64,000 nt of DNA, taken from NCBI GenBank assembly GCA_001770725.1, contig MERU01000007.1, forward strand, positions 108,924 to 172,923, read 5' to 3'. Position 1 is the stretch's first letter, and every line of letters starts with the position of its first letter. Below, piece after piece: positions 4,911 to 16,433 of this stretch. The notes beneath the pieces are model-generated. The model did not search any database and was not told the DNA's origin. It saw nothing but the letters and a program-made list of their open reading frames with translations. The translations under genes and the position numbers were made by a program. Origin of the DNA: Burkholderiales bacterium RIFCSPHIGHO2_01_FULL_63_240 (GTDB lineage: Bacteria > Pseudomonadota > Gammaproteobacteria > Burkholderiales > Burkholderiaceae_C).

Positions 4911-6476
4911 GTGAATGCAATCAGGTCGGAAATGACCGTCACGGGCCGCCTGGCCCTGGGTTTTGGGGGCGTCACCCTCATCGGCTTGCTGATCGCCGCC
5001 ATCGCGGTGTGGATCATGCAGGACATGGGGAACCGGCTCGACACCATCGCCAAGGACCGCATGGTCAAGGTGGCGAAGTTCAATGAGCTCAAGGGCAACC
5101 TGAGCCTGATCGCGGCGGCGGCACGGGACATCCTGCTGTCCGAGGACCTCGGCTTCGAGAACGAGGCAAGCACCCGCATCCAGCAGCTGCGGGCCCGCAA
5201 CGCCGAGCTGATGGCCGAGCTGGACAAACTCGTGCTCATGCCCGGGGGGCGCGAGTTGCTCCAGGCGATCTCCGACAACCGGCCCGAATACAACCGCCTG
5301 ACCGATCAGGCGATCGAGCTGGACCGCAAAGGCCAGACCGCTGAGGCCGTGCTCATCTTAATGGTGCAGGCCAAGGAGAGGCGCCAGGCCATCTTCAAGG
5401 CGGTCGACGACTCCATCGCCATGCAGCAGGAAGCCACCCTGGCCTTGGTCACCGAATCACATCGTCAGGCCGGCATGGGCGTGATGGGCATGGTGCTGCT
5501 GGGCGTGCTGATGGCGGCCCTGGGCGCCGCCGTGACCTGGTTCACCGCGCGCAACCTGCGCCGTGCACTGGGGGCCGAGCCGCGCGAGCTGGGCGCCATC
5601 GCCCAACGCGTGGCCGACGGTGACCTGCATCCCATCGCCCATGGCCACCAGGCGCCGCAGGGCAGCGTGCTGGCCTCCCTGTCGGACATGCAGACCAAGC
5701 TGGCCACCATCGTCGGTCAGGTGCGCCACAGCAGCGAGAGCATCGCCACAGGGTCCGCCCAGATCGCCACGGGCAACGCCGACCTGAGCCAGCGAACCGA
5801 AGAGCAGGCGAGCAACCTGCAGCAGACGGCGGCTTCGATGGAGCAGATCTCCGGCACCGTGCAGAGCAACGCAGAAACCGCGACCGAGGCCAGCCAATTG
5901 GCCGGCGACGCGGTTTCGGCGGCCGAGCGCGGCGGCGCGCTGATGGGCAACCTGGTCTCGACGATGAAGGACATCTCGCTGGCTTCGGGCAAGATCTCCG
6001 AGATCATCGGCGTGATCGATGGCATCGCCTTCCAGACGAACATCCTGGCGCTCAACGCCGCGGTCGAGGCCGCACGGGCGGGCGAGGAAGGGCGTGGCTT
6101 CGCGGTGGTGGCAGGCGAGGTGCGCACGCTGGCGCAACGCTCGGCCGAAGCCGCCCGCGAGATCCGCACCCTGATCCACACCAACGTGGAGAAGGTCCGC
6201 CTGGGCGAGCAGCAGGCCGACGAGGCCGGCGGCTCCATCGGAGACATCGTCGGTCAGGTGCAGCGCGTCAATCAGATGATCGCCGAGATTTCGAACGCCT
6301 CGGCCCAGCAGGCCACGGGCGTGGGGCAGGTGGGCGATGCCATCACCCAGCTCGACCAGGTGACGCAGCAGAACGCTGCGCTGGTGGAGGAAAGCGCCGC
6401 CGCCGCGGAGAGCCTGCGCACGCAGGCGCACCGCATGGCGGAGATGGTCAGCGTGTTCAGGCTGGCTCAGGCCTGA
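4911..6476 (+). CDS. Methyl-accepting chemotaxis protein
   Basis: GTG at 4911 lies 6 nt after AAGGAGA. TM helix, periplasmic region, second TM helix, HAMP, and the conserved signalling hairpin ([41 protein letters not shown]). Confidence 0.9.
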
Positions 6477-6493
6477 TCGCCGATTGAGCCGTC

Positions 6494-7129
6494 TCAGCGC
6501 TTGAGGAAGGGGTTGAACCGGCGTTCTTCCCCGAAGGTGCTCTCGGGCCCGTGACCGGGCGTGAAGGTGATGTCGTCGCCCAGGGGCAGCAGGTGCTGCG
6601 TGATGGCGCGGATCAGGTCGCCGTGGTTGCCGCCGGGGAAGTCGGTGCGACCGATGCCGCCGTTGAACAGCACATCGCCCACGAAGGCGTGGCGCGTGCC
6701 ACCGTGGAAGAACACGACGTGGCCTGGCGTGTGGCCAGGGCAGTGCAGCACCTTCAGCGTCTGCTTGCCGATGCTGACTTCATCGCCATCGTGCAACCAG
6801 CGCGTGGGCGTGAAGGGCTCGGCTTGCGGAAAGCCGAACATCTGGCTTTGCTGGGGCAGGGCGTCGATCCAGAACTGGTCGCCTTCGTGGGGGCCGACGA
6901 TGGGCAAGGCCAGCGTGCGCGCCAGCGTGCCGGTGCCCCCCGCGTGGTCGATGTGGGCATGCGTCAGCCACAGCGCCTTGAGCGTCAGACCGCGCTCTTC
7001 GACGGCCTGCAGCAGCACGCCGATGTCGCCACCCGGGTCGATCAGGGAGGCCTCGTTGGTCTCGTCACACCAGACGAGGGAGCAGTTCTGTTCGAAGGCG
7101 GTGACGGGGAGGGTGAGGCGGTGGAGCAT
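6494..7129 (-). CDS. MBL-fold hydrolase (GloB/YcbL-like hydroxyacylglutathione hydrolase family)
   Basis: THAHIDHAGG metal-binding motif. Start placed at MLHRLTLPV (7129) because the 14 extra codons of the ORF are encoded by the AT-rich inverted-repeat element at 7141-7187. Confidence 0.8.
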   Translation of the reverse strand: MLHRLTLPVTAFEQNCSLVWCDETNEASLIDPGGDIGVLLQAVEERGLTLKALWLTHAHIDHAGGTGTLARTLALPIVGPHEGDQFWIDALPQQSQMFGFPQAEPFTPTRWLHDGDEVSIGKQTLKVLHCPGHTPGHVVFFHGGTRHAFVGDVLFNGGIGRTDFPGGNHGDLIRAITQHLLPLGDDITFTPGHGPESTFGEERRFNPFLKR

Positions 7130-7140
7130 GCCGTCTGCGT

Positions 7141-7187
7141 AGGAATCGGACAACAAAGTTTTAAAACTCAAAACATAGTCTCAAAAC
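7141..7187. repeat. Left terminal inverted repeat of the island
   Basis: AGGAATCGGACAACAAAGT + 20-nt insert + CTCAAAAC. The reverse complement of 13348-13375 is AGGAATCGGATAACAAAGTCTCAAAACC (18/19 plus 8/8 match). Confidence 0.6.
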
Positions 7188-7516
7188 GCTTTGATTTGAA
7201 ACGACTTTTGAGAGCGTAGCACTCTGTGGGCAGAGTGCCCATTCAAATGCGCCACTTCGGCCAGTGATCAGCCCCTTCCCGGTCAGATGGGATTTTCATC
7301 GGATGAAAGCGGGCTGAGGGCCTTTCCAGGCTGGGTGCGGTCATGCCCAGCTGACAGGCACCAAGCTCGTGTCACTGAACAGCTCGGCCACTGCGAGGCG
7401 AACCAAGGTGCATTGCTCCATTCTGGCCCGTCGCGAGTTGAGCAGGTCACAGCGACTTATCAAGATGCTGGGCATGACCTGGTCACCCTGACCGCCTGCC
7501 ACATTGAACATGTCAG

Positions 7517-7558
7517 CATCAAATAAAACGGGGCGTCCGTCTTGAAACGAACGCCCCG
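7517..7558 (-). terminator. Rho-independent terminator after rtcB
   Basis: On the minus strand, stem CGGGGCGT...ACGCCCCG is followed by GTTTTATTTGAT, immediately 3' of the rtcB stop. Confidence 0.7.
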
Positions 7559-7580
7559 GCTAGTGGGCACAATAGATCTG

Positions 7581-8798
7581 TCATCCCTTGACACACACCA
7601 CCTGCTTGAGCGTGTGCACCACATCGACAAGGTCACGCTGAGCCTCCATCACCGCATCAATGTCCTTGTACGCGGCCGGGGTCTCATCGATCACATCCTT
7701 GTCCTTGCGGCACTCGACGCCCTCGGTGGCCGTACGGTGGTCAGCCAGAGTGAAGCGGCGCTTTGCCTCGCCACGGCTCATGACACGACCGGCCCCGTGT
7801 GAGCAACTCTCGAAGCTCTCTGGGTTGCCCTTGCCACGCACGATGTAGCTGCGCGCGCCCATGCTGCCCGGGATGATGCCCAGCTGACCGGCCTTGGCGC
7901 TCACCGCACCCTTGCGGGTCACAAAAATTTCCTCGCCAAAGTGATGCTCGCGCTGCACGTAGTTGTGGTGACAATTCACGGCCTCGATGTGGCTTTGGAA
8001 GTTCTTGCGGATCACGGTCTTGGCAGCCTCGATCACGCGGCGCATCATCACCTCACGGTTGATGGCGGCGAACTTCTGCGCCCAGCCGACGCCGCGTACG
8101 TAGTCACCAAAGTAGCGGCTGCCTTCTTCGAAGTAGGCCAGATCGCGGTCGGGCAGGTTGGCGTTGTTGCGCATCGCATCTTGCTTGGCCAGTTCGATGA
8201 ACATGGTGCCAATGAAGTTGCCCACGCCACGCGAACCTGAGTGCAGCATGAACCACACGGCACCTTGCTCGTCCAGGCAGACTTCGATGAAGTGGTTGCC
8301 CGTACCGAGCGTGCCCAGGTGATTGCGGTTGTTGGTCTTGGCGATCTTGGGATAGTCGCGGCACAGTTCGGTGAACTCGGGCTCCAGTTGCGCCCAGGCC
8401 GTGTCGACCGAACCTGGCACCTTTTGCCAGGCACCTGGATCACGGTTGCCTGGTGCGCGACCATGCGGCACGGCACGTTCGATGGCGGCGCGCAGCGGGC
8501 CCAGGTTGTCAGGCAGGTCTTCAGCTGTCAGCGTGGTCTTGCAGGCCATCATGCCGCAGCCGATGTCCACACCCACCGCAGCCGGGATGATGGCCTTGAT
8601 GGTGGGAATGACCGAACCGACGGTCGCTCCGATACCAAAGTGCACATCCGGCATGGCTGCAATGTGTTTGAACACGACAGGCAGACGGGCCGCATTGATG
8701 AGCTGGCGACGGGCTTCGTCTTCCACGGGCACACCGCGCGTCCACATCTTCACCGGCACGCCACCAAGCGTGTCTTCTTCGATGTAATTCGTTTCCAT
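7581..8798 (-). CDS. rtcB: RtcB-family RNA 3'-phosphate/2',3'-cyclic-phosphate ligase
   Basis: 405 aa. Hallmark motifs AAMPDVHFGIGATVGSV, GCGMMA, GTLGTGNHFIE, HSGSRG and SCSHGAGR. Confidence 0.95.
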   Translation of the reverse strand: METNYIEEDTLGGVPVKMWTRGVPVEDEARRQLINAARLPVVFKHIAAMPDVHFGIGATVGSVIPTIKAIIPAAVGVDIGCGMMACKTTLTAEDLPDNLGPLRAAIERAVPHGRAPGNRDPGAWQKVPGSVDTAWAQLEPEFTELCRDYPKIAKTNNRNHLGTLGTGNHFIEVCLDEQGAVWFMLHSGSRGVGNFIGTMFIELAKQDAMRNNANLPDRDLAYFEEGSRYFGDYVRGVGWAQKFAAINREVMMRRVIEAAKTVIRKNFQSHIEAVNCHHNYVQREHHFGEEIFVTRKGAVSAKAGQLGIIPGSMGARSYIVRGKGNPESFESCSHGAGRVMSRGEAKRRFTLADHRTATEGVECRKDKDVIDETPAAYKDIDAVMEAQRDLVDVVHTLKQVVCVKG

Positions 8799-8862
8799 GA
8801 TTTATCTCATTCTTCCGTAAATGGAGGCGGCATGGCCGCCTCTGTGTAATGCCCTCGCTGAT

Positions 8863-10005
8863 CTAGGCCTTGAGCTTGACCAAGCCATTGAGGACCTGAT
8901 CCAGACCTCCGAACACGGAGATCTTGTCGATGCGCTCGGCAACACGCTCCAGCGTCTCCAGCTCCTTCATGCGCAAAGCGACAGGGTTGCCCTCCATCAC
9001 CTTGGCGGTGTTGAGCAAGGAACGCGTGGCAGCGGTTTCCTCACGGCGACGGATCACGTTGGCCTGAGCAGCCTTTTCGGCTTCAACGACTTGCGCCAGG
9101 ATGGTCTTCATCTCGCCGGGCAGTACGATGTCCTTCACGCCGGCTGTTTCCAGATCGATGCCATAAGCCACCAAGCGTGCCTTGACGTGTGCCATCACGA
9201 CCTCATCGATCACGGTCTTGTTCTCCAGCAGCTCATCGAGCGTGCGCGTACCCACGGCCGATCGCAAACCGAACTGCAGCTCACGGTACAGGTGTTCCGC
9301 GGGCTTTTGCAGCTGCGTGTAGGCCTTGAGTACATCGGTGAAGCGCCACGATGCCGACAGGTTCAGGCGCAGGCCGACCTTGTCCTTGGTGAGGATGTCC
9401 TGGCCGGACACCTCCACCACCTGCAGACGCAAGTCCACCAGCTCGACCGAAACGTTGCGGTTGTACTTCCAGAAGCCGTAAGAGCCCGGCTTCAGAAGCG
9501 AGTCCACCTTGCCGTCGACATGCAGCACGCCCACGCCGTACTCGGGCACCTGCACGGTCAGCACACCAATCAGACCAGCGACCTGGCGTTGACGCATCTG
9601 CGTCTGCGTCAGGCGCGCCACCAGTTCAGCAGGAAGCTCGGCGTGGTTGCTGATGTCCAGCACATCAACCTTGACCTCGTGCAGGCCCTTCCAGTACAGA
9701 CGGCGCGTGGTGGGCGCCAGCAACTCAACCAGTACACCGTTCTCATAGCGCAAGCCCACCTCGGTTTCCTTGAGGTCGACGCGCACGAACTCGGCTTCCA
9801 CCACAGCAGGCTCCTTGGCCATCAAATAGTCGGCCAGGCCGTGCGCGAAGGCGGACTGCTCCAGCGAGAATGTCTCGACACGCACATCGCTCAGTGCCGT
9901 GGCCAGCCAGTGACGGCCAGGCTGCAGCACGCGCTCGAAGTCGCCATTGCGCAGCAGCAGGCCACGCTCGTTCTTTTTGACAGTGAAACGTTTGAATCCC
10001 AACAT
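8863..10005 (-). CDS. SPFH/band-7 (slipin-like) protein with a ~200-aa N-terminal extension
   Basis: Start MLGFKRF at 10005 preceded by AAGGAGAAG. The C-terminal half carries an SPFH core and a coiled region (VVEAEKAAQANVIRRREETAATR...NPVALRMKELETLERVA). Confidence 0.8.
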   Translation of the reverse strand: MLGFKRFTVKKNERGLLLRNGDFERVLQPGRHWLATALSDVRVETFSLEQSAFAHGLADYLMAKEPAVVEAEFVRVDLKETEVGLRYENGVLVELLAPTTRRLYWKGLHEVKVDVLDISNHAELPAELVARLTQTQMRQRQVAGLIGVLTVQVPEYGVGVLHVDGKVDSLLKPGSYGFWKYNRNVSVELVDLRLQVVEVSGQDILTKDKVGLRLNLSASWRFTDVLKAYTQLQKPAEHLYRELQFGLRSAVGTRTLDELLENKTVIDEVVMAHVKARLVAYGIDLETAGVKDIVLPGEMKTILAQVVEAEKAAQANVIRRREETAATRSLLNTAKVMEGNPVALRMKELETLERVAERIDKISVFGGLDQVLNGLVKLKA

Positions 10006-10240
10006 GGGCTTCTCCTTCTTGTTTGTATGAGGGTGCCGATACAGCACTGGCTGCGGACAAGGAAGGCCTTGGCTCAGGCATGGCGGATTCGCGGTGTGTC
10101 TTCCTCCCAGATCGACACGTCGCTTGGCCACCTGCGCGAGCCACGCGTTTTCCTTGCACAAGCCACCAGCGCTGACAGATGGCAAGCCATCTGCGTTCGG
10201 CGGAGGTCTTTCGACCGGCTTTTTGGCAACCTTCGCAGGG

Positions 10241-10314
10241 TTGTTGGTACGGGAATCGAACCCGTGACAGACGCATTACAAGTGCGTTGCTCTACCCGAC
10301 TGAGCTAACCAATG
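10241..10314 (-). tRNA. tRNA-Thr(UGU)-like, with non-pairing 1:72 and 2:71
   Basis: Hand fold: D arm GCTC/GAGC, anticodon arm ACGCA-CTTGTAA-TGCGT, T arm ACGGG-TTCGATT-CCCGT. Acceptor CATTGGT/ACCAACA pairs at only 5 of 7 positions. No encoded CCA. Confidence 0.6.
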
Positions 10315-10516
10315 GGTGGCTGCTTGGGAATCGAACCCATCACCGTTGCCGGCGCTGACCACAGACAGCCCAATCAACCGTTTCCAACAGACGCGGCATG
10401 CACCGTGACAACAGGCTTGAACCTGGCCACAGCGCACCGGCGGGGCGGGCTTTCACCCAAACCCCTGACCTGTGAGCGCCCGCCTTTCACGGCAGACTCT
10501 TTGGCGCTTGAACCTC
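10313..10516 (-). ncRNA. Structured non-coding segment ending in a tRNA-like 3' module (T-arm + acceptor strand + CCA)
   Basis: 3' end reads ATGGG-TTCGATT-CCCAA-GCAGCCA-C-CCA (10313-10340). Internal T-arm-like hairpin CAGG-TTCAAG-CCTG (10412-10425). Two GTGAAAG hairpins. No local 5' tRNA half; the only complement (GTGGCTG) is at 10553-10559, inside the HNH 3' end. Confidence 0.3.
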
Positions 10517-11092
10517 TCAGTTCAAGCGCGATCCTTTTGGCAGGCGCGAAGCCAGCCACTCGTGTACATCGGCCCGGATGTGCCTGCCTTGCAGCAGGAA
10601 GTCTTCGAATCGACTGGGCACATAGGGCAGGTACAGCAATGGCATGCGGGCTTCCTCTGGCGTGCGGTTGGCCTTGGCAGCATTGCAGCCAGGGCAGGCC
10701 GTCACCAGATTCATCCACGATGTGGCACCGCCCCGAGAGGCCGGCACGATGTGCTCGCATTGCAGTACGCCCTCAGAGAAGCGATCACCGCAGTAGGCAC
10801 AAACACACCGGTCACGCCGAAAGAGCTTCAACCTGTTCAGCGACGGCGCAACCTCAAACAGGTTGATGCGCGAAGCGCCGTTGAGCGCCATGATGGGGAA
10901 GATTTCCATCACGGACGGGCGACCCGTTCGGGCATTGACGCCGCCCCGCAGACGGCGCAGCGGTCCGTCGCCGTCGACCCATGCCACCGAGGCACTGGCC
11001 AGATGGATGGCGGCCTGTTCGACCGTGATCCAGGCTTGTGGCGTGCCTTGAATGTCCAGTTGCAGGACATGCGTTGAGGTACTCGGTGACAT
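10517..11092 (-). CDS. HNH endonuclease (McrA/COG1403-like, ~191 aa)
   Basis: Start MSPSTS at 11092 follows AAGGAGGG by 6-7 nt. HNH core CAYCGDRF...CEHIVPASRGG..WMNLVTACPGCNAAKANRTPEEA. Confidence 0.85.
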   Translation of the reverse strand: MSPSTSTHVLQLDIQGTPQAWITVEQAAIHLASASVAWVDGDGPLRRLRGGVNARTGRPSVMEIFPIMALNGASRINLFEVAPSLNRLKLFRRDRCVCAYCGDRFSEGVLQCEHIVPASRGGATSWMNLVTACPGCNAAKANRTPEEARMPLLYLPYVPSRFEDFLLQGRHIRADVHEWLASRLPKGSRLN

Positions 11093-11119
11093 GGGGAGCC
11101 CTCCTTTCATGGGCAGGTG

Positions 11120-11272
11120 TCAGTGCATGGTGTCGTTGGATCGGCGCAGCTCACGCTTGAGGCGTTGCCGCTCTTGCTTGTTGTTGGGTTGATGATTGCC
11201 TGCTTTGCGTTGCATGGCAGGGGCGACGAGTGGGTTCCTCGGCTTGGAGGTGCCCCGTTTGGGTGTTCTCAT
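11120..11272 (-). CDS. Hypothetical 50-aa highly basic peptide upstream of the HNH gene
   Basis: ATG at 11272 follows AAGGGA. Sequence MRTPKRGTSKPRNPLVAPAMQRKAGNHQPNNKQERQRLKRELRRSNDTMH. No homology recognised; could be non-coding. Confidence 0.3.
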   Translation of the reverse strand: MRTPKRGTSKPRNPLVAPAMQRKAGNHQPNNKQERQRLKRELRRSNDTMH

Positions 11273-11306
11273 GACAAGATCCCTTGCGAACGCGTGGCGG
11301 AACGAA

Positions 11307-11383
11307 TGGCGTCTCGTACGGGAATCGAACCCGTGTTCCGACATTGAAAGCGTCGTGTCCTAGGCCAGCTAGACGAACGAGAC
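11307..11383 (-). tRNA. tRNA-Glu(UUC), CCA encoded
   Basis: GTCTCGT-TC-GTCT-AGCTGGCCTA-GGAC-A-CGACG-CTTTCAA-TGTCG-GAAC-ACGGG-TTCGATT-CCCGT-ACGAGAC-G-CCA. Resembles bacterial tRNA-Glu (TTCGTCTAG...GGAC). Confidence 0.9.
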
Positions 11384-11433
11384 GTAGATGGCTGTGGCTT
11401 CAATCACGCCAGTAGTCATGGCGTTGGCTGCCG

Positions 11434-11642
11434 TCAAAAGCAGCCCGATGTCAGGCAACAGCGCTTGAAATGATTTGGTCGATCCGCAAGGGCATGGGTC
11501 GTTGCGTCCCAGCTTCTCGTGCAGGTACTTGTCACCATGCACGATGCGCTGACCACGCTTGACGCCTGTCTCAGACGGATAGCCCTTACGACGCTTGCTC
11601 GTGACCTCGAAAGCAAGCCTGTTCTTGGCGGTTGAATTTCAT
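11434..11642 (-). pseudogene. Small SEC-C-motif protein gene disrupted by two +1 frameshifts
   Basis: RBS AAGGAG plus ATG at 11642 opens an 18-codon frame. The next frame reads ...[55 protein letters not shown] third frame finishes [10 protein letters not shown]. Removing one A from an AAA run and one T from a TTT run restores a 68-aa ORF. Confidence 0.55.
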
Positions 11643-11725
11643 TTTTGACTCCTTGTTGAGTTGCCCCTGTGAACGGCCAGGTGCCTACCGGATGACAGCG
11701 ATATGCGATGCCCAATGCGCTTGGG

Positions 11726-11796
11726 GGTGACCGGCCGGAGTCGAACCGGCACCATCGGAATCACAAACCGAGGCTCTGCCATTGAGCTACGGCCAC
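11726..11796 (-). tRNA. tRNA-His(GUG)-like lacking the encoded G-1
   Basis: GTGGCCG-TA-GCTC-AATGGCA-GAGC-C-TCGGT-TTGTGAT-TCCGA-TGGT-GCCGG-TTCGACT-CCGGC-CGGTCAC-C. Nucleotide -1 is T. The trailer is CCCAA, with no exact CCA. Confidence 0.75.
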
Positions 11797-11826
11797 ACCC
11801 AAGCGCACTGGGCGTTGAAATGGTTG

Positions 11827-11899
11827 TCTCGGAGGACGGGTTCGAACCGCCGACCTGATGCTCCCAAAGCACCCGCGCTACCAACTGCGCTACACCGAG
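11827..11899 (-). tRNA. tRNA-Pro(UGG)
   Basis: CTCGGTG-TA-GCGC-AGTTGGTA-GCGC-G-GGTGC-TTTGGGA-GCATC-AGGTC-GGCGG-TTCGAAC-CCGTC-CTCCGAG-A. C1-G72 and A73 as in bacterial tRNA-Pro. One U-U mismatch at 6:67. No encoded CCA. Confidence 0.8.
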
Positions 11900-11906
11900 A
11901 AACAAC

Positions 11907-11984
11907 TGGCGCCTCCTGCACGACTCGAACGTGCGACCCCTGGCTTCGTAAACCAGTGCTCTGAATCCACTGAGCTAAGGAGGC
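11907..11984 (-). tRNA. tRNA-Arg(ACG), CCA encoded
   Basis: GCCTCCT-TA-GCTC-AGTGGATTCA-GAGC-A-CTGGT-TTACGAA-GCCAG-GGGTC-GCACG-TTCGAGT-CGTGC-AGGAGGC-G-CCA. Confidence 0.9.
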
Positions 11985-12002
11985 AAAGCTGCAGAAACTG
12001 AT

Positions 12003-12078
12003 TGGTGCCGCAGGAGGGATTCGAACTCTCGACGCCCGGCTCTTCAGGCCGGCGCTCTACCAACTGAGCTACCGCGGC
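12003..12078 (-). tRNA. tRNA-Phe(GAA) with G37, CCA encoded
   Basis: GCCGCGG-TA-GCTC-AGTTGGTA-GAGC-G-CCGGC-CTGAAGA-GCCGG-GCGTC-GAGAG-TTCGAAT-CCCTC-CTGCGGC-A-CCA. A-C mismatch at 52:62. Position 37 is G. Confidence 0.8.
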
Positions 12079-12092
12079 ATGGGAATAGGTTG

Positions 12093-12168
12093 TGGCGCTT
12101 CGTGCGGGAGTCGAACCCGCGGCTTCCGGCTAGACAGGCCGGCACTCTGGCCACTGAGTTAACGAAGC
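12093..12168 (-). tRNA. tRNA-Asp(GUC) with U37, CCA encoded
   Basis: GCTTCGT-TA-ACTC-AGTGGCCA-GAGT-G-CCGGC-CTGTCTA-GCCGG-AAGCC-GCGGG-TTCGACT-CCCGC-ACGAAGC-G-CCA. Anticodon stem is identical to the neighbouring tRNA-Phe. Confidence 0.8.
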
Positions 12169-12401
12169 AAGGTATCCACTTCGGCTGTGCCCAAGCGCGA
12201 GCACTCATGGACGGCAGTCCAGAGTCGATGTCTCGCTGCATGTGGATCCGGGCCCGGACCACACACATCCCTTGCCACCGACACCAGCGTTACGCGTGTG
12301 ACTCGGAGTGCAAGGACACACCCGAAGTGGAGCGAACGGCGAACCATTCGCTACTTGTGCGAAATGTCTGCTTGCGTGTAGGCAAGACATCTCGCGGCAA
12401 A

Positions 12402-12414
12402 TTGTTAAAGAGCG
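12402..12414 (-). promoter_or_regulatory. rrn-type boxA (NusB/NusE antitermination element) in the leader of the tRNA array
   Basis: The minus strand reads CGCTCTTTAACAATTT. The E. coli rrn boxA, as I recall it, is TGCTCTTTAACAATTT. Confidence 0.65.
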
Positions 12415-12429
12415 ACACCTGTGAGGTGC

Positions 12430-12447
12430 GGCGATCCGTTGATCGCC
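12430..12447 (-). promoter_or_regulatory. boxB-like hairpin just upstream of boxA
   Basis: Minus strand GGCGATC-AACG-GATCGCC is a perfect 7-bp stem, 15 nt 5' of boxA. The boxB-then-boxA order matches rrn leaders. Confidence 0.5.
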
Positions 12448-12480
12448 AGGGTGCGTAACGAGCACGCAGTGAAGGTGGTG

Positions 12481-12523
12481 AGGAAAAGCGAAGAGGCCCG
12501 GATCCTTTTGGAATCCGGGCCTC
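12481..12523 (-). terminator. Intrinsic terminator or attenuator between the 66-aa ORF and the boxB/boxA leader
   Basis: Minus strand GAGGCCCGGAT(T)CC-AAAA-GGATCCGGGCCTC is followed by TTCGCTTTTCCT. Confidence 0.55.
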
Positions 12524-12553
12524 TGCTTGAGAGAGCTAGGAGGGGCGTGCGCC

Positions 12554-12754
12554 TTACGCGTCAACGACTCCCTCACCCGGTTGCACCTGATCCTCATGTC
12601 CACGGATGTACGCATCCCGCTTGGCATGGGATGGTTCAAACTGGAACGCGATCAAGCACGGGCGGCTGCCATACAACATCGCGGCAGCCGCACGCACGAA
12701 CGCGCTCTGGCCCATGAGGGGCAGGCGGTTGGTGGTGTTCAGTCTGGATTTCAC
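12554..12754 (-). CDS. Hypothetical 66-aa protein, divergent from the HTH regulator (Cro-like position)
   Basis: GTG at 12754 lies 6 nt after AAAGGA, and the ORF is followed by the hairpin terminator. No family recognised. Confidence 0.4.
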   Translation of the reverse strand: MKSRLNTTNRLPLMGQSAFVRAAAAMLYGSRPCLIAFQFEPSHAKRDAYIRGHEDQVQPGEGVVDA

Positions 12755-12835
12755 GATGTGTCCTTTGAAAATCTGCGTCAGTTGTTTGGTTTGATCTAGC
12801 CAAGCTTCATCTCGAAACTTGACAATGGATGAAAT

Positions 12836-12852
12836 GGTAAAGACTCTTTACC
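12836..12852. promoter_or_regulatory. 17-bp perfect palindrome (candidate operator)
   Basis: GGTAAAGA-C-TCTTTACC, in the divergent intergenic region. Confidence 0.45.
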
Positions 12853-12883
12853 GAGCTGTCAACGCCCTGCGACAATGGTGCTA

Positions 12884-12900
12884 TTGCCAATTTGTGGCAA
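12884..12900. promoter_or_regulatory. Palindrome TTGCCA-N5-TGGCAA abutting the regulator ATG (candidate operator)
   Basis: TTGCCAATTTGTGGCAA, whose last A is the A of the ATG at 12900. GACAATGG also occurs twice, 50 bp apart (12821 and 12871). Confidence 0.4.
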
Positions 12901-13286
12901 TGCTCACACCAGCCATCTTGAACAACATCACCGTGACACGCCGGCGTAACGCGCTGGCGCTATTCCAAAGCTTTGCAGAAGAAGCCTTGGCTTCGGGCAC
13001 GCCTCCCAAAGGGCTGGAGCAATCGTTCGCGCAAAAGCTGGAAATTTCCCCCAGCATGTGGAGTCAGATCAAGTCGTCCAGGCCTATCGGCGACAAGATG
13101 GCCAGGCAGATTGAACAGCACTGCATCAAGCCACCTGGGTGGCTTGATGAAGAGAGGGAGAGCGTCGGTCTCACGCCAGCGGAGCAACAGTTCCTGGCAT
13201 TGGCCTTACAGGCGTGGCGGTCCACTAACACGGCTGGCCGCAAGGCATTGCGTGAGCACCTTAAGAGCAGCTTGGCCAAGACCTGA
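12900..13286 (+). CDS. Phage-repressor-like (Cro/CI, XRE-type) HTH regulator
   Basis: ...FAQKLEISPSMWSQIKSSRPIGDKMARQIEQHCIKPPGWLDE is a typical XRE HTH plus the GWLD tail. An alternative TTG start at 12819 would place two palindromes inside the coding sequence. Confidence 0.7.
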   Translation: MLTPAILNNITVTRRRNALALFQSFAEEALASGTPPKGLEQSFAQKLEISPSMWSQIKSSRPIGDKMARQIEQHCIKPPGWLDEERESVGLTPAEQQFLALALQAWRSTNTAGRKALREHLKSSLAKT

Positions 13287-13347
13287 CGGCCCACTCGGTG
13301 CAGACCTAAATGAATACAAAAGACCTTCAGCAACCTCCCTAGGCACC

Positions 13348-13375
13348 GGTTTTGAGACTTTGTTATCCGATTCCT
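13348..13375. repeat. Right terminal inverted repeat of the island
   Basis: GGTTTTGAGACTTTGTTATCCGATTCCT is the reverse complement of the 7141-7187 element, allowing one mismatch and one 20-nt indel. Confidence 0.6.
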
Positions 13376-13426
13376 CTTCGTGGAGGTGAAATGACGTGGG
13401 GGGCGTACCGCCGCAGCCAGCGTGGG

Positions 13427-15619
13427 TCAGGCTGGTGGTGGATGGCTGAGCCACTTGAGCAAGGTCGCAAAGAGCTGGGCGCGATCGATGGGCTTGGCGA
13501 TGTGGTCGACCATGCCTGCAGCCAGGCAGAGCTGTTTGTCTTCCTCGAAGGCGTTGGCCGTCATGGCAAGGATGGGCGTGGCCTGATTGAGCCCACCGCC
13601 CAGGATCGCCCGCGTGGCGTCCAGCCCGTTGAGATGGGGCATCTGCATGTCCATCAGGATGAGGGCATAGCGGTTGCGGCGGGCCAGCTCGACGGCCTGC
13701 TCACCGTCTTCGGCCAGGTCGACCGTCAGCCCGACGTGCTCCAGCAGGCACCGCGAGACTTCCTGGTTGATGGGCTCGTCCTCCGCCAGCAGGACCTTGG
13801 CGGAGGCAAACCGCTGCCGCAGTTGGGCCTCGTCCGATGACTGGGCGAGTGGGGGCGTCGGTGCAAGCGATGTCGCGTCGGCTGGCGCCTTGTCGAGCCT
13901 CACGGTGAACCAGAAGGTGCTGCCTGAGCCCGTCTGGCTCTGGACCCCGATGTCCCCGCCCATCAGCCGCACCAGACGCTTGCTGATGGCCAGCCCGAGC
14001 CCGGTGCCGCCATACCTGCGGGTCATGGAGCCATCGGCCTGCTCGAAGTCCGTGAACAGCTTTGCCTGGTCTTCCGGGGCGATGCCGATGCCGGTGTCGA
14101 TGACCTCCCAGCGCAGCAGCAGGTCTTTGTCCGTGTCCTCCGCGATGCGGCAACGCAAGGTGACGTGGCCCTCCTGCGTGAACTTGATGGCATTGCTGAC
14201 CAGGTTGAGCAGCACCTGGCCGAGTCGAGTCGGATCGCCTGTGACACGGAGGTCGCCCAGGCCGGGGGAAAGGTCCACGCGCAGGCGCAGCCCCTTTTCC
14301 GTCGCCTTGTGACCAACGATGGTCAGCAGGTGGTCCACGACCTCCCTGATCTGCAAGTCCACGCGCTCCAGCACGAGGCGTTCGGCTTCGATCTTGGAGA
14401 TGTCGAGGATGTCGTTGATCAGGTGCAGCAGGTGCTGCGAGGCCTTGTCCGCCTTCTCGAGGTAATCGCGTTGCTTGGGATGGGTGGCGAGGTGCAGGGC
14501 CAGGCCGGTCATGCCCATGATCCCGTTCAAGGGCGTGCGCAGTTCGTGGCTCATGTTGGCCAGGAAGGTGCTCTTGGCGCGGCTGGCGGCTTCGGCGGCG
14601 TCCCTGGCCTGGATCAGTTCCAGCTTGGACAATCGCAACTCGGTGTTCGATGTTTCCGCGGCGTCCTTCGCGGCCTGCAGTTCGGCCGTTCGTTCGTGCA
14701 CAAGGGCCGCCAGGTGCTGGTGATAGGCCTGCAGCTCGATTTCAGCCAGGTTGCGTCGGTGGGCGTACTGAGCCAGCAAGAGCATCGGCCCCACGCTCAG
14801 CAGGAGCGCCAGCGCAAACCCGAGCCGGATGGTCCAGGTTTGGCCTTGGTCGTCGGGCCACCCGCCGCGAGGCCTCGCCGCGATCTGCCACGAGCCAGTG
14901 GGCAGGGTGATGGGCAGGGTCACGCCCTGGCCGGCAAAGAGGGTCGGGTCGCCGTGGAACACCTCGCCCTGCTCGCCTTTGCCATCCTTGCCGCGCAGGG
15001 CCACCTCGATCGGCAGGCTGTCGTCGTGCAGCCCGCTTTGTTGATACAGGCGATCGACCTCGAGGACGACGGACAGCAGCCCCCAGAAGCGGCGACCTTT
15101 CTCACCTTCGTCGAGGGTGACGGGGATGCGGGCGATCATGCCCTTGCCGCCTTGAACCAGGTCAAGGGGACCGGCGATGACGAGGGAGTTGGTGTCGCGG
15201 GCCAGTTCGGCGGCGGCCCGCTGGGCGGGGTTGCGGGCGTACTCGAGGCCGATCACCTTTTCGTTGCCGGCCAGGGGGTACACCAGGCGCACCACCATGT
15301 CCGGGGCCGCAGCGATGCTGCGCAGCACGTTGGGGCCTTCGAACAGGGGTTTGGCCGCCCTCTCGAAGTCACGTTGGGTCAAATCGGGTTTGGATGCGAT
15401 CACGGCCACCAGGCCGCGCGAGAGCAGGATGTTGCCGGTCAACTGGCTTTCGAGCCGGGCCTGCAGGATGAGCAGGTGTTCGCGCACCTGGGTCTCGGCC
15501 TCCACGCGCAGCGTGTGCTGGCGTTGCCGCTCGACGAAATAGGCTGCCAGCACCAGCACCACGGCTGTGGTGCATGCCGCCAGGACAATCTGCCAGACCC
15601 CTTTGTAGCGAACATGCAT
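13427..15619 (-). CDS. Hybrid sensor histidine kinase/response regulator with a periplasmic CHASE-like domain
   Basis: Start MHVRYKG at 15619. TM helix, CHASE-like region, second TM helix, coiled coil, HisKA ([16 protein letters not shown]), HATPase (GTGLGLAIS), and C-terminal REC ([10 protein letters not shown]...DMQMPHLNG). Confidence 0.9.
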
Positions 15620-15740
15620 CCGAGAGACCTCAGCCAGGAACCCGCCGTGATGGACCAAAGTCCATTCTAAGACTTGGGTTATCGGTCAGGGCTGATTTTT
15701 CGCGACGTCACCTCGGGGTGCGGCGCGGCTGAGACATGCG

Positions 15741-16433
15741 TCAATGCAGGAACCGGTAGCCCACCCCGACTTCGGTCAGCAGGTGCCTGGGCATCGACGG
15801 GTGGGCTTCGACCTTCTTGCGCAGGTTGGCCATGTGCACGCGCACGTAGTGGCTGTCTTCGGCGTGCCCTGGGCCCCAGACCGCCTTGAGCAGTTGGCTG
15901 TGCGTGATGACGCGGTCGGGCTGGCCCGCCAGGTAGGTCAGCAGCTTGTACTCGATGGGCGTGAGGTGCACGACTTCGCCACGCCGTGTCAGCTGCCGCT
16001 TGACGAGGTCGAGCTCCAGGTCGCCAAAGGCGATGAGGCTGTCGCCGTTGGGTGCTTGGTGCAGGTGCCGCCGCAGCTGAGCCCGCACGCGCGCCATGAG
16101 CTCGCCCGCGCCGAAGGGCTTGACCAGGTAGTCGTCCGCGCCAGCATCCAGGGCTTCGATCTTGTCGGTCTCGGCGCTGCGGGCCGACAGCACGATCACG
16201 GGTGTGGTGGACCAGTTGCGAAATTCGCGGATGAAGGTCACGCCATCGCCATCGGGCAGGCCGAGGTCGAGCACCACCAGGTCGGGCCTGCGCGTGCCGG
16301 CTTCGATCAGGCCGCGCCGCAGGGTGTCGGCCTCGTGGACTTCGTGGCCCTCGGTTTGAAGGGTGAGGCGAACGAAGTGCCGGATGGTCGGGTCGTCCTC
16401 GATGACCAGGATGTGGGCGTGCAGCTCGCTCAT
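15741..16433 (-). CDS. kdpE: KdpE response regulator (OmpR family)
   Basis: REC plus winged helix, overlapping the kdpD stop by 4 nt. Confidence 0.9.
   Translation of the reverse strand: MSELHAHILVIEDDPTIRHFVRLTLQTEGHEVHEADTLRRGLIEAGTRRPDLVVLDLGLPDGDGVTFIREFRNWSTTPVIVLSARSAETDKIEALDAGADDYLVKPFGAGELMARVRAQLRRHLHQAPNGDSLIAFGDLELDLVKRQLTRRGEVVHLTPIEYKLLTYLAGQPDRVITHSQLLKAVWGPGHAEDSHYVRVHMANLRKKVEAHPSMPRHLLTEVGVGYRFLH

Follow-up and report, generated by a model that had tools for sequence, protein, structure and literature searches.

A 64,000-nt stretch of contig MERU01000007.1 (positions 108,924 to 172,923) of Burkholderiales bacterium RIFCSPHIGHO2_01_FULL_63_240, referred to here as the window, contains a 6.2-kb block of reduced G+C content that is bordered by a pair of short imperfect inverted repeats, raising the question of what these repeats are and whether the DNA between them arrived as one unit. 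A first-pass annotation of the letters regarded them as the true termini of a mobile island that encodes no transposase and whose movement was either ancient or driven in trans, and the evidence presented here supports that view. The repeats are best explained as the two ends of a non-autonomous 6.2-kb Tn7-like transposon (7141-13375) that carries cargo only, a reading to which we assign a probability of roughly 0.88.

The terminal inverted repeats at the two island borders are real. The left element (7141-7187) consists of AGGAATCGGACAACAAAGT, 20 nt and CTCAAAAC, and the right element (13348-13375) reads AGGAATCGGATAACAAAGTCTCAAAACC in reverse complement, which confirms on the letters the 18/19 plus 8/8 identities first reported for the pair. 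A repeat finder returned a 27-nt ungapped match of 89% as the longest inverted pair within 6500-14200, and the right arm of this pair is also matched, at 94%, by a second unit on the left (7172-7187). Allowing up to three mismatches, the terminal 19-mer occurs twice in the window, both times at the island ends (0.00 expected from 100 shuffles), and the same two copies are the only ones in the whole genome (4,119,648 bases, 99.99% complete; reversed control, 0). Because the genome holds only these two copies, the repeats are not of the repetitive extragenic palindromic (REP) type, an option that the first-pass annotation had raised. In other families of the order the 19-mer at three mismatches gave matches no better than the reversed control, and these were dropped; L032 (G006), an unrelated match, was also dropped. 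An Rfam search of 5000-16000 at E <= 1 returned only the seven tRNAs and weak chance hits, with nothing at the repeat ends. Position 7151 is C in the window and T in metagenome runs X10 and X11, so that in those strains the terminal 19 nt of both ends form a perfect inverted repeat. The G+C content is about 0.68-0.70 to the left of 7000, 0.54-0.63 over 7000-13500, 0.62-0.67 from 13500 to about 16 kb and about 0.70 past that point; the left composition border of the island is sharp and the right one softer.

Natural strains that lack the block define its limits. The region 6000-14500 is almost identical in 14 public metagenome runs from at least eight studies, nine of which are possible sources of this DNA and give no independent support; contigs of four runs, probably derived from DNA, were compared, and contigs, as opposed to reads, report the presence of both forms and not their frequencies. 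In runs X11, X14 and X15 position 7137 is joined directly to 13379, which leaves out 6,241 bases; the three letters CGT at this joint can be assigned to either flank. An 8,419-nt contig of X15 leads from 6117-7137 straight into 13379-14500, with 19 differences over the 2,143 bases aligned. Contigs that contain the island come from X10, X11 and X14, with both borders bridged in X10 and a 6,350-nt contig of X11 spanning 7111-13460, and filled and empty alleles are found together in X11 and X14. The empty site reads ...GTCTG CGT GGAGG... and the filled site ...TCTGCGT / element / CTTCGT GGAGG.... Since this exact empty joint, which the first-pass annotation had proposed to look for, occurs in strains about 99% identical to the window, the block is a discrete, strain-variable insertion whose edges coincide with the outer edges of the repeats, and it reached its site as one unit. 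An empty site was also sought through relatives of the histidine kinase encoded in the distal flank; no full-length kinase match was found in 75 congeners, the matches extending only from residue about 280 to 742. Distal-side synteny is not kept between species, and cross-species empty sites could therefore not be built. The congener matches to the histidine kinase cover only its kinase and receiver part. The distal flank may itself be accessory DNA, as its G+C content stays under the left-flank level to about 16 kb.

The same ends recur in the genus, with one end type beside a conserved gene. Among 76 congener genomes, of which the close relatives are titled Aquabacterium, a 19-nt unit pattern with at most two mismatches is present in 29 (the unpublished G026 included; reversed control, 0/76), and in nine of the 11 loci first examined the motif adjoins the start of an orthologous gene for a metallo-beta-lactamase (MBL)-fold hydrolase, a gene that is present in 72 of the 76 congeners. 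The ends are built from a 15-nt unit, AACAWAGTYTCAAAA, repeated up to three times per end with a spacing that is fixed and end-specific. In many genomes the end that always lies on the hydrolase side, here called the A end, has units at 0, +20 and +64 followed by a conserved 35-nt box; in the opposite B end the units stand at 0, +59 and +113, the first of them followed by a CCTAGG box. The 20-nt insertion in the window's left repeat, initially taken for a local duplication, is the second of these family-wide units. Of the 41 genomes whose upstream region was read, 25 have an A end whose units can be recognised, in a single orientation and 8-11 nt away from the hydrolase start (17 from the first mapping and eight of 24 further genomes, the latter judged by eye); eight of the remainder keep only the tail of the box, seven keep nothing and one falls at a contig break. 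In the window the terminus is 11 nt from the start codon, and blastn matches to the inner A end reach 7330 in G035, 7342 in G007, 7299 in G075 and 7244 in G002 (92%). The open reading frame (ORF) call for the hydrolase, 6494-7171, begins at a TTG (7171) within the repeat, and similarity among relatives stops at the ATG at 7129, 14 codons downstream; the 14-codon extension supplied by the repeat is real as an ORF call and spurious as a gene start, as the first-pass annotation had it. The best NCBIfam match of the hydrolase is GSH_gloB, under the cut-off (100.6 against 200.8 bits).

As the first-pass annotation had suggested might be found, the same ends enclose different cargo in relatives. This cargo varies and consists mostly of defence systems; it comprises a restriction-modification pair, CBASS-type cyclases with effectors, Xre, Fic and TIR genes, a JetD-like gene with metal efflux, a type I restriction subunit, RHS and nSTAND genes. 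In congener G063 the ends lie 43 kb apart on one contig and enclose a four-gene tns string. A 761-aa protein matches Tn7 TnsB (7pik) at E 5.5e-17 over residues 159-603 against 121-557 (phmmer, solved structures), the 341-aa protein encoded upstream matches Tn7 TnsA (1t0f and 1f1z, E 3e-6; weak Pfam Tn7_Tnp_TnsA_C, E 0.0016), and downstream of TnsB follow an AAA_22/TniB protein and then a TniQ + TnsD protein. The G063 element also has a second TniQ-type gene, Dpd-like genes and a Gabija-like OLD-TOPRIM plus UvrD pair, and TniQ genes lie just inside the B ends of G002, G068 and G070. The family TnsB has no Pfam match even at E <= 10 and no NCBIfam match, and it is about 25% identical to annotated plasmid TnsB proteins. 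It is encoded in six congeners (G063, G070, G068, G065, G021 in two pieces, and the unpublished G026), with 44-54% identity between the G063 protein and its homologues in the five others; three more genomes have TnsB proteins of other lineages, 28-29% identical. An Acidovorax plasmid carries a copy whose TnsB is 47% identical and, together with its TnsA- and TnsC-like neighbours, is annotated as 'hypothetical protein'; B-end-like units lie nearby. Of the 29 congeners that carry the end motif, only six encode the family TnsB; this protein is found in only six of 76 genomes, and most copies of these ends are therefore non-autonomous or relics.

The flanks of the ends carry further marks of transposition. 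With the terminus set where conservation begins, perfect 5-bp target duplications are present in three of six end pairs (G063 TCAAG, G002 CAGCT and G070 AGAGA). The B end of G070, G068 and G099 is directly bordered on its outer side by an older, decayed A end; new copies thus insert at one and the same position and displace earlier ones outward. A 1.37-kb element in G099 (L036, G099:C23, 6350-7740) has a full A and a full B end with three units each, contains no ORF with a Pfam match, has no target duplication and is directly followed by an older A-end remnant; it looks like a derivative of the family resembling a miniature inverted-repeat transposable element (MITE).

Within this family the window's element is a non-autonomous derivative, without TnsA, TnsB, TnsC or a target selector of its own. 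No transposase, integrase or Tns domain was found in the 15 ORFs scanned over 7141-13375, in keeping with the lack of a transposase or integrase between the repeats noted at first, and tblastn searches of the genome at E <= 0.01 with TnsA, TnsB, TnsC and five family TniQ proteins gave no match, nor did a separate genome search with the family TnsB. Both ends are shortened. Unit 2 of the A end directly abuts the box that in full A ends comes after unit 3, so that about 44 nt of the stretch from unit 2 to unit 3 are absent, and the B end is without units 2 and 3. A candidate for a decayed unit 2 in the B end, at about 7/15 against the consensus by eye, was not counted. Having two units at one end and one at the other, no tns gene and no tns homologue in the genome, the element cannot move by itself now, and the shortened ends make its transposition competence doubtful.

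By analogy with Tn7, the family TnsB would presumably bind the 15-nt units, TnsA and TnsB would together cut the element out, a TniQ/TnsD protein would recognise conserved coding sequence at the 5' end of the hydrolase gene, and TnsC would relay this target selection to insertion at a fixed distance upstream of the hydrolase start. For the short form without tns genes, one possible origin is movement in trans through a helper copy, and there are plasmids that carry full copies; the other is that a longer element was trimmed by internal deletions before its spread in the species. We hold these two origins about equally probable, and the imperfect duplication and the missing inner units count against an easy answer.

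Several observations weigh against an interpretation as a Tn7-like transposon. The end pairs of the window, G099 and G068 have no perfect 5-bp duplication; the window's flanks, TGCGT and CTTCG, agree at 4/5 only past one extra C, with CGT unambiguously duplicated. The G002 and G070 end pairs lie on separate contigs, and each is taken as one element because its duplications match. The identity of the family TnsB is given by one phmmer match to solved structures and by gene order, the decayed-end counts in the 24 further genomes were made by eye, and the window's ends are shortened as described. Tn7-type ends typically start with TG, against AGG or GGG here.

Some of these points would also suit two separate events, in which an old resident end remnant was joined by an unrelated later end, so that the block never formed a single transposable unit. 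In the genus many A ends by the hydrolase gene are solo or decayed (G012, G036, G005 and G080 have one unit each and no second end was found), ends are stacked in tandem in G099, G068 and G070, and the window has no clean target duplication. This scenario has to explain near-identical strains that lack both ends and everything between them, with the joint at the outer edges of the repeats and no end remnant left behind, and we consider it improbable. The features of the element and its flanks are listed in Table 1.

Table 1. Features of the Tn7-like element and its flanks in the window, as interpreted here
Feature	Position	Strand	Basis or remark
Target gene: MBL-fold hydrolase, glyoxalase-II-like	6494..7129	-	Pfam Lactamase_B, E 2e-34
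Left copy of imperfect target duplication, TGCGT	7136..7140	.	Empty-site strains and flank comparison
Gene-proximal A end: terminus and repeat unit 1 (AACAAAGTTTTAAAA at 7152)	7141..7167	+	
A-end repeat unit 2 (AACATAGTCTCAAAA at 7172)	7168..7187	+	Full ends: units 0, +20, +64
Conserved A-end box	7188..7222	+	Minus strand ends in TGCTACGCT, extended -10-like, facing hydrolase gene
Non-coding inner part of A end, common to other species	7223..7342	.	blastn
Intrinsic-terminator-like hairpin 3' of rtcB	7529..7558	-	13 pairs and T run
RtcB RNA ligase, cargo	7581..8798	-	Pfam RtcB, E 5e-128
SPFH/Band-7 protein, cargo	8863..10185	-	Pfam Band_7, E 7e-29
tRNA-like element called tRNA-Thr(TGT), cargo	10239..10314	-	Conserved family, anticodon variable
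HNH endonuclease, cargo	10517..11110	-	Pfam HNH_5 and HNH
tRNA genes Glu(TTC), His(GTG), Pro(TGG), Arg(ACG), Phe(GAA), Asp(GTC), cargo	11307..12168	-	ARAGORN; Rfam 54-67 bits
Conserved 155-aa protein, no known family, divergent from tRNA array, cargo	12819..13286	+	
Distal B-end remnant: terminus and unit 1 (13348-13375), CCTAGG box (13333-13347)	13295..13375	-	
Right flank CTTCGT	13376..13381	.	TTCGT against left TGCGT 4/5, after one extra C
Distal flank: CHASE-domain hybrid histidine kinase	13427..15658	-	Pfam

The cargo is organised around an array of tRNA genes and an RNA ligase. All credible island genes are on the minus strand except the divergent gene for the 155-aa protein, which has no Pfam, NCBIfam or PADLOC match. 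A 93-codon ORF separates tRNA-Glu from tRNA-His, the last five tRNA genes occupying 11724-12168. The anticodons of the seven tRNA-type genes are all present elsewhere in the genome, in host copies to which the island genes are 69-79% identical, and rtcB is a single-copy gene (tblastn). Similarity of the cargo to other genomes ends at 13273-13294. PADLOC gave only generic HNH-domain matches on the island, and blastn against phage records matched the rtcB and tRNA genes only, with no record covering 80%. Upstream of the tRNA array there is a promoter-like site on the minus strand (TTGACA, 17 nt, TACCAT; 12862-12834), and a 14-pair terminator-like hairpin (12492-12524, minus strand) lies within a 144-codon ORF (12205-12639) that has relatives in only seven of the 80 module loci described next and is probably no gene.

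This set of genes is a conserved module that occurs widely apart from the present ends. From 283 confirmed relatives of the SPFH protein in species representatives, 80 loci were kept (L050-L129), with RtcB in 73, HNH in 48 and relatives of the 155-aa protein in 41 (tblastn). HNH, SPFH and RtcB occur together in 43 of the 80, and 39 of these 43 have at least two, and up to 21, tRNA genes upstream. The order in Burkholderiales is the divergent 155-aa protein, a variable tRNA array, HNH, the tRNA-like gene, SPFH and RtcB, at loci titled Aquabacterium, Piscinibacter, Rubrivivax, Ideonella, Ramlibacter, Ottowia and others; Acidovorax-titled loci mostly have SPFH and a 72-76%-identical RtcB only. 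Other Aquabacterium-titled genomes have 85-92% DNA identity to 7498-13294 of the window in different surroundings, and the transposon end unit was found in 0 of the 80 module loci in the stretch examined, up to 8 kb on each side. The first-pass annotation had held that relatives with the island and without the repeats would mark the repeats as generic; such relatives exist for the cargo in the literal sense, and the repeats are not thereby generic. The presence of the cargo elsewhere without these ends implies that cargo and carrier are separable. At one Aquabacterium-titled locus (L053, 403-10601), glmS, next to which Tn7 classically inserts, is followed about 3 kb downstream by the tRNA/HNH/SPFH/RtcB module.

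The module also bears on the notion that the island was moved by its own HNH endonuclease in a homing reaction, the repeats being homing or recombination sites. The enzyme is the only nuclease inside the island, which had led the first-pass annotation to name it as a possible mobiliser, and HNH genes are in general linked to tRNA arrays (PMC8421152). The same HNH protein (65-94% identical) is encoded at 48 of the 80 module loci, and none of the 80 has the repeat unit in the stretch examined, the same repeats bound unrelated cargo without this HNH, and a paralogue elsewhere in the genome (C6:137131-137673, 49% identical) has no repeats. The HNH gene is thus rejected as mobiliser and is part of the conserved tRNA/RtcB cargo module; homing is a very unlikely cause. 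Equally unlikely is an origin of the repeats as attachment sites for an island of the integrase type or as generic palindromes between genes (REP or operator), which would suit short repeats bordering a compositionally distinct block; the repeats are inverted and not direct, neither the block nor the adjoining DNA encodes an integrase or recombinase domain, the genome has only two copies, and the family has Tn7-type genes with 5-bp duplications. Chance similarity without function, for which the short repeat length is the sole point, has a practically negligible probability and was already refuted by the shuffles, by recurrence at the same gene in many species and by the empty-site joint at the repeat edges.

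The position of the Tn7-like element relative to its target gene has consequences for expression. In the empty strains the kinase and hydrolase genes share a strand, with about 60 nt between the stop codon of the former and the start of the latter, and they are probably co-transcribed there. Once inserted, the element separates them by 6.2 kb and by the rtcB terminator. On the hydrolase strand the box of the A end bears the motif TGCTACGCT (window 7214-7222, minus), with the variants TAGGCT and TACCCT, and the invariant TG, T, A and final T are the positions that an extended -10 element would keep. Of 41 genomes, 24 have the pattern TGCTA[CG][CG]CT in the 300 nt that precede the hydrolase gene (0.0004 expected), at distances of 125-128, 76-83, 58-64, 28-29 or 6-7 nt from the ATG, so that the motif outlasts the decay or deletion of the units. 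In G084 and G091 the pattern lies 7 nt from the ATG and would give a leaderless mRNA. We infer that the A end may supply an outward promoter for the hydrolase gene, cut off as it is from the kinase gene; this proposal draws only on conservation of the motif, because a sigma-70 consensus scan of 7050-7650 called no promoter.

The tRNA-like gene between HNH and SPFH belongs to a wider family. A tRNA-type gene lies at most 450 nt, and mostly 28-140 nt, upstream of SPFH in 40 of the 80 module loci, and 39 such upstream sequences align with the window's own as one homologous family. Conservation extends to the D arm, the T arm and an acceptor stem of 4-5 bp, with covariation in the anticodon stem; the anticodons include CAT (11), GAT (8), TGT (3), AAC (3) and a dozen others, with near-identical copies that differ essentially only at the anticodon (TGT, CGT, AGT and CAG). 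The top two acceptor pairs are mismatched and CCA is encoded in few copies; judging from these features, the RNA may not be chargeable, and one could guess at a bait for anticodon nucleases or a processing signal. Other RNA-related genes were seen near these elements. Genes for a Tpt1/KptA RNA 2'-phosphotransferase, an ADP-ribosylglycohydrolase and Macro or NUDIX proteins lie beside the RtcB module in an Aquabacterium metagenome-assembled genome (L075, 10759-16787), and the same Tpt1/KptA-type set lies beside the family tns genes on an Acidovorax plasmid (L172, NZ_AP029020.1, 20531-23556). The set may be a second kit, for RNA repair or for reversal of ADP-ribosylation, that travels with these elements.

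A more far-reaching and tentative picture, which we think unlikely to hold in full, is that of a natural 'mini-Tn7'. Such an element would be moved by helper Tns proteins, for example from a plasmid copy as in Acidovorax, and would ferry a tRNA-damage kit between strains, the kit consisting of spare tRNAs, RtcB and a non-chargeable tRNA-like RNA that acts as bait or sentinel for anticodon nucleases, while its proximal end would have evolved an outward promoter for the hydrolase gene.

Taken together, an unexplained repeat pair becomes a mobile element whose ends are exactly placed, whose landing site is defined and whose empty allele occurs in nature. The element belongs to a divergent, poorly annotated Tn7-like lineage, and both the transposon type and the cargo type are already known. 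The lineage would be overlooked by gene-based surveys and standard annotation, because its TnsB has no Pfam or NCBIfam match and most of its copies have no tns genes. Landing just upstream of a start codon raises the matter of how expression of the target gene is maintained by the target selector together with the sequences of the ends, and the natural filled and empty alleles together with this site make a good test case. Spare-tRNA/RtcB cassettes ride Tn7-like carriers into a defence-island hotspot, and such Tn7-borne cargo fits the idea of protecting translation against tRNA-cleaving toxins. Outside the repeat question, the tRNA-like RNA with its variable anticodon is the oddest feature seen.

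In comparison with Tn7, full relatives of the window's element encode homologues of TnsA, TnsB, TnsC and TniQ/TnsD in the same order, their ends are asymmetric with several repeated sites each, they generate 5-bp target duplications, and the family uses one fixed site in one orientation beside a conserved gene. Unlike Tn7, the family inserts 8-11 nt upstream of a start codon and not past the 3' end of a gene, so that insertion severs the gene from whatever lay upstream. Its TnsB, at about 25% identity to annotated plasmid TnsB proteins, is missed by Pfam and NCBIfam, and the window's copy is without tns genes and has shortened ends. In the latter respect it resembles transposase-less Tn7-like islands and engineered mini-Tn7, which consist of ends and cargo only and depend for any movement on the Tns proteins of another copy. 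At attTn7, natural islands that lack tns genes are known; the present case differs from transposase-less islands in that the filled and the exact empty allele both occur in natural populations and in that the attachment site is another one. Two TniQ-type genes in one element, as in G063, also have a parallel among Tn7-like elements, where such a pair has been described (PMC10293859), and the defence-rich cargo of the family is likewise a feature described for the Tn7-like group (PMC8649781). An attachment site at a hydrolase gene was sought in both: the main text of PMC10293859 contains none of the terms 'lactamase', 'glyoxalase' and 'hydroxyacylglutathione', and its partly available supplements name Lactamase_B only as a gene inside a Tn7 locus, and the main text of PMC8649781, supplements aside, does not contain 'lactamase', from which we make no claim that the site is absent from print.

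The cargo cassette, judged by its genes, fits an L-array type tRNA operon. L-array operons are described in PMC8421152 as linked to HNH and rtcB genes, horizontally spread and induced under translational stress. As in those arrays, the window's extra tRNAs duplicate host anticodons and differ from the host copies in sequence, HNH and rtcB stand in the same gene string, and horizontal spread is evident. There are also differences from those L-arrays. The window's array is short, with seven tRNA-type genes, and does not qualify as 'long', while relatives have up to 21; an SPFH protein always precedes RtcB in this module; a tRNA-like element with a variable anticodon, of a kind that does not appear in the passages of PMC8421152 consulted, lies between HNH and SPFH; and the window's cassette rides a Tn7-like carrier.

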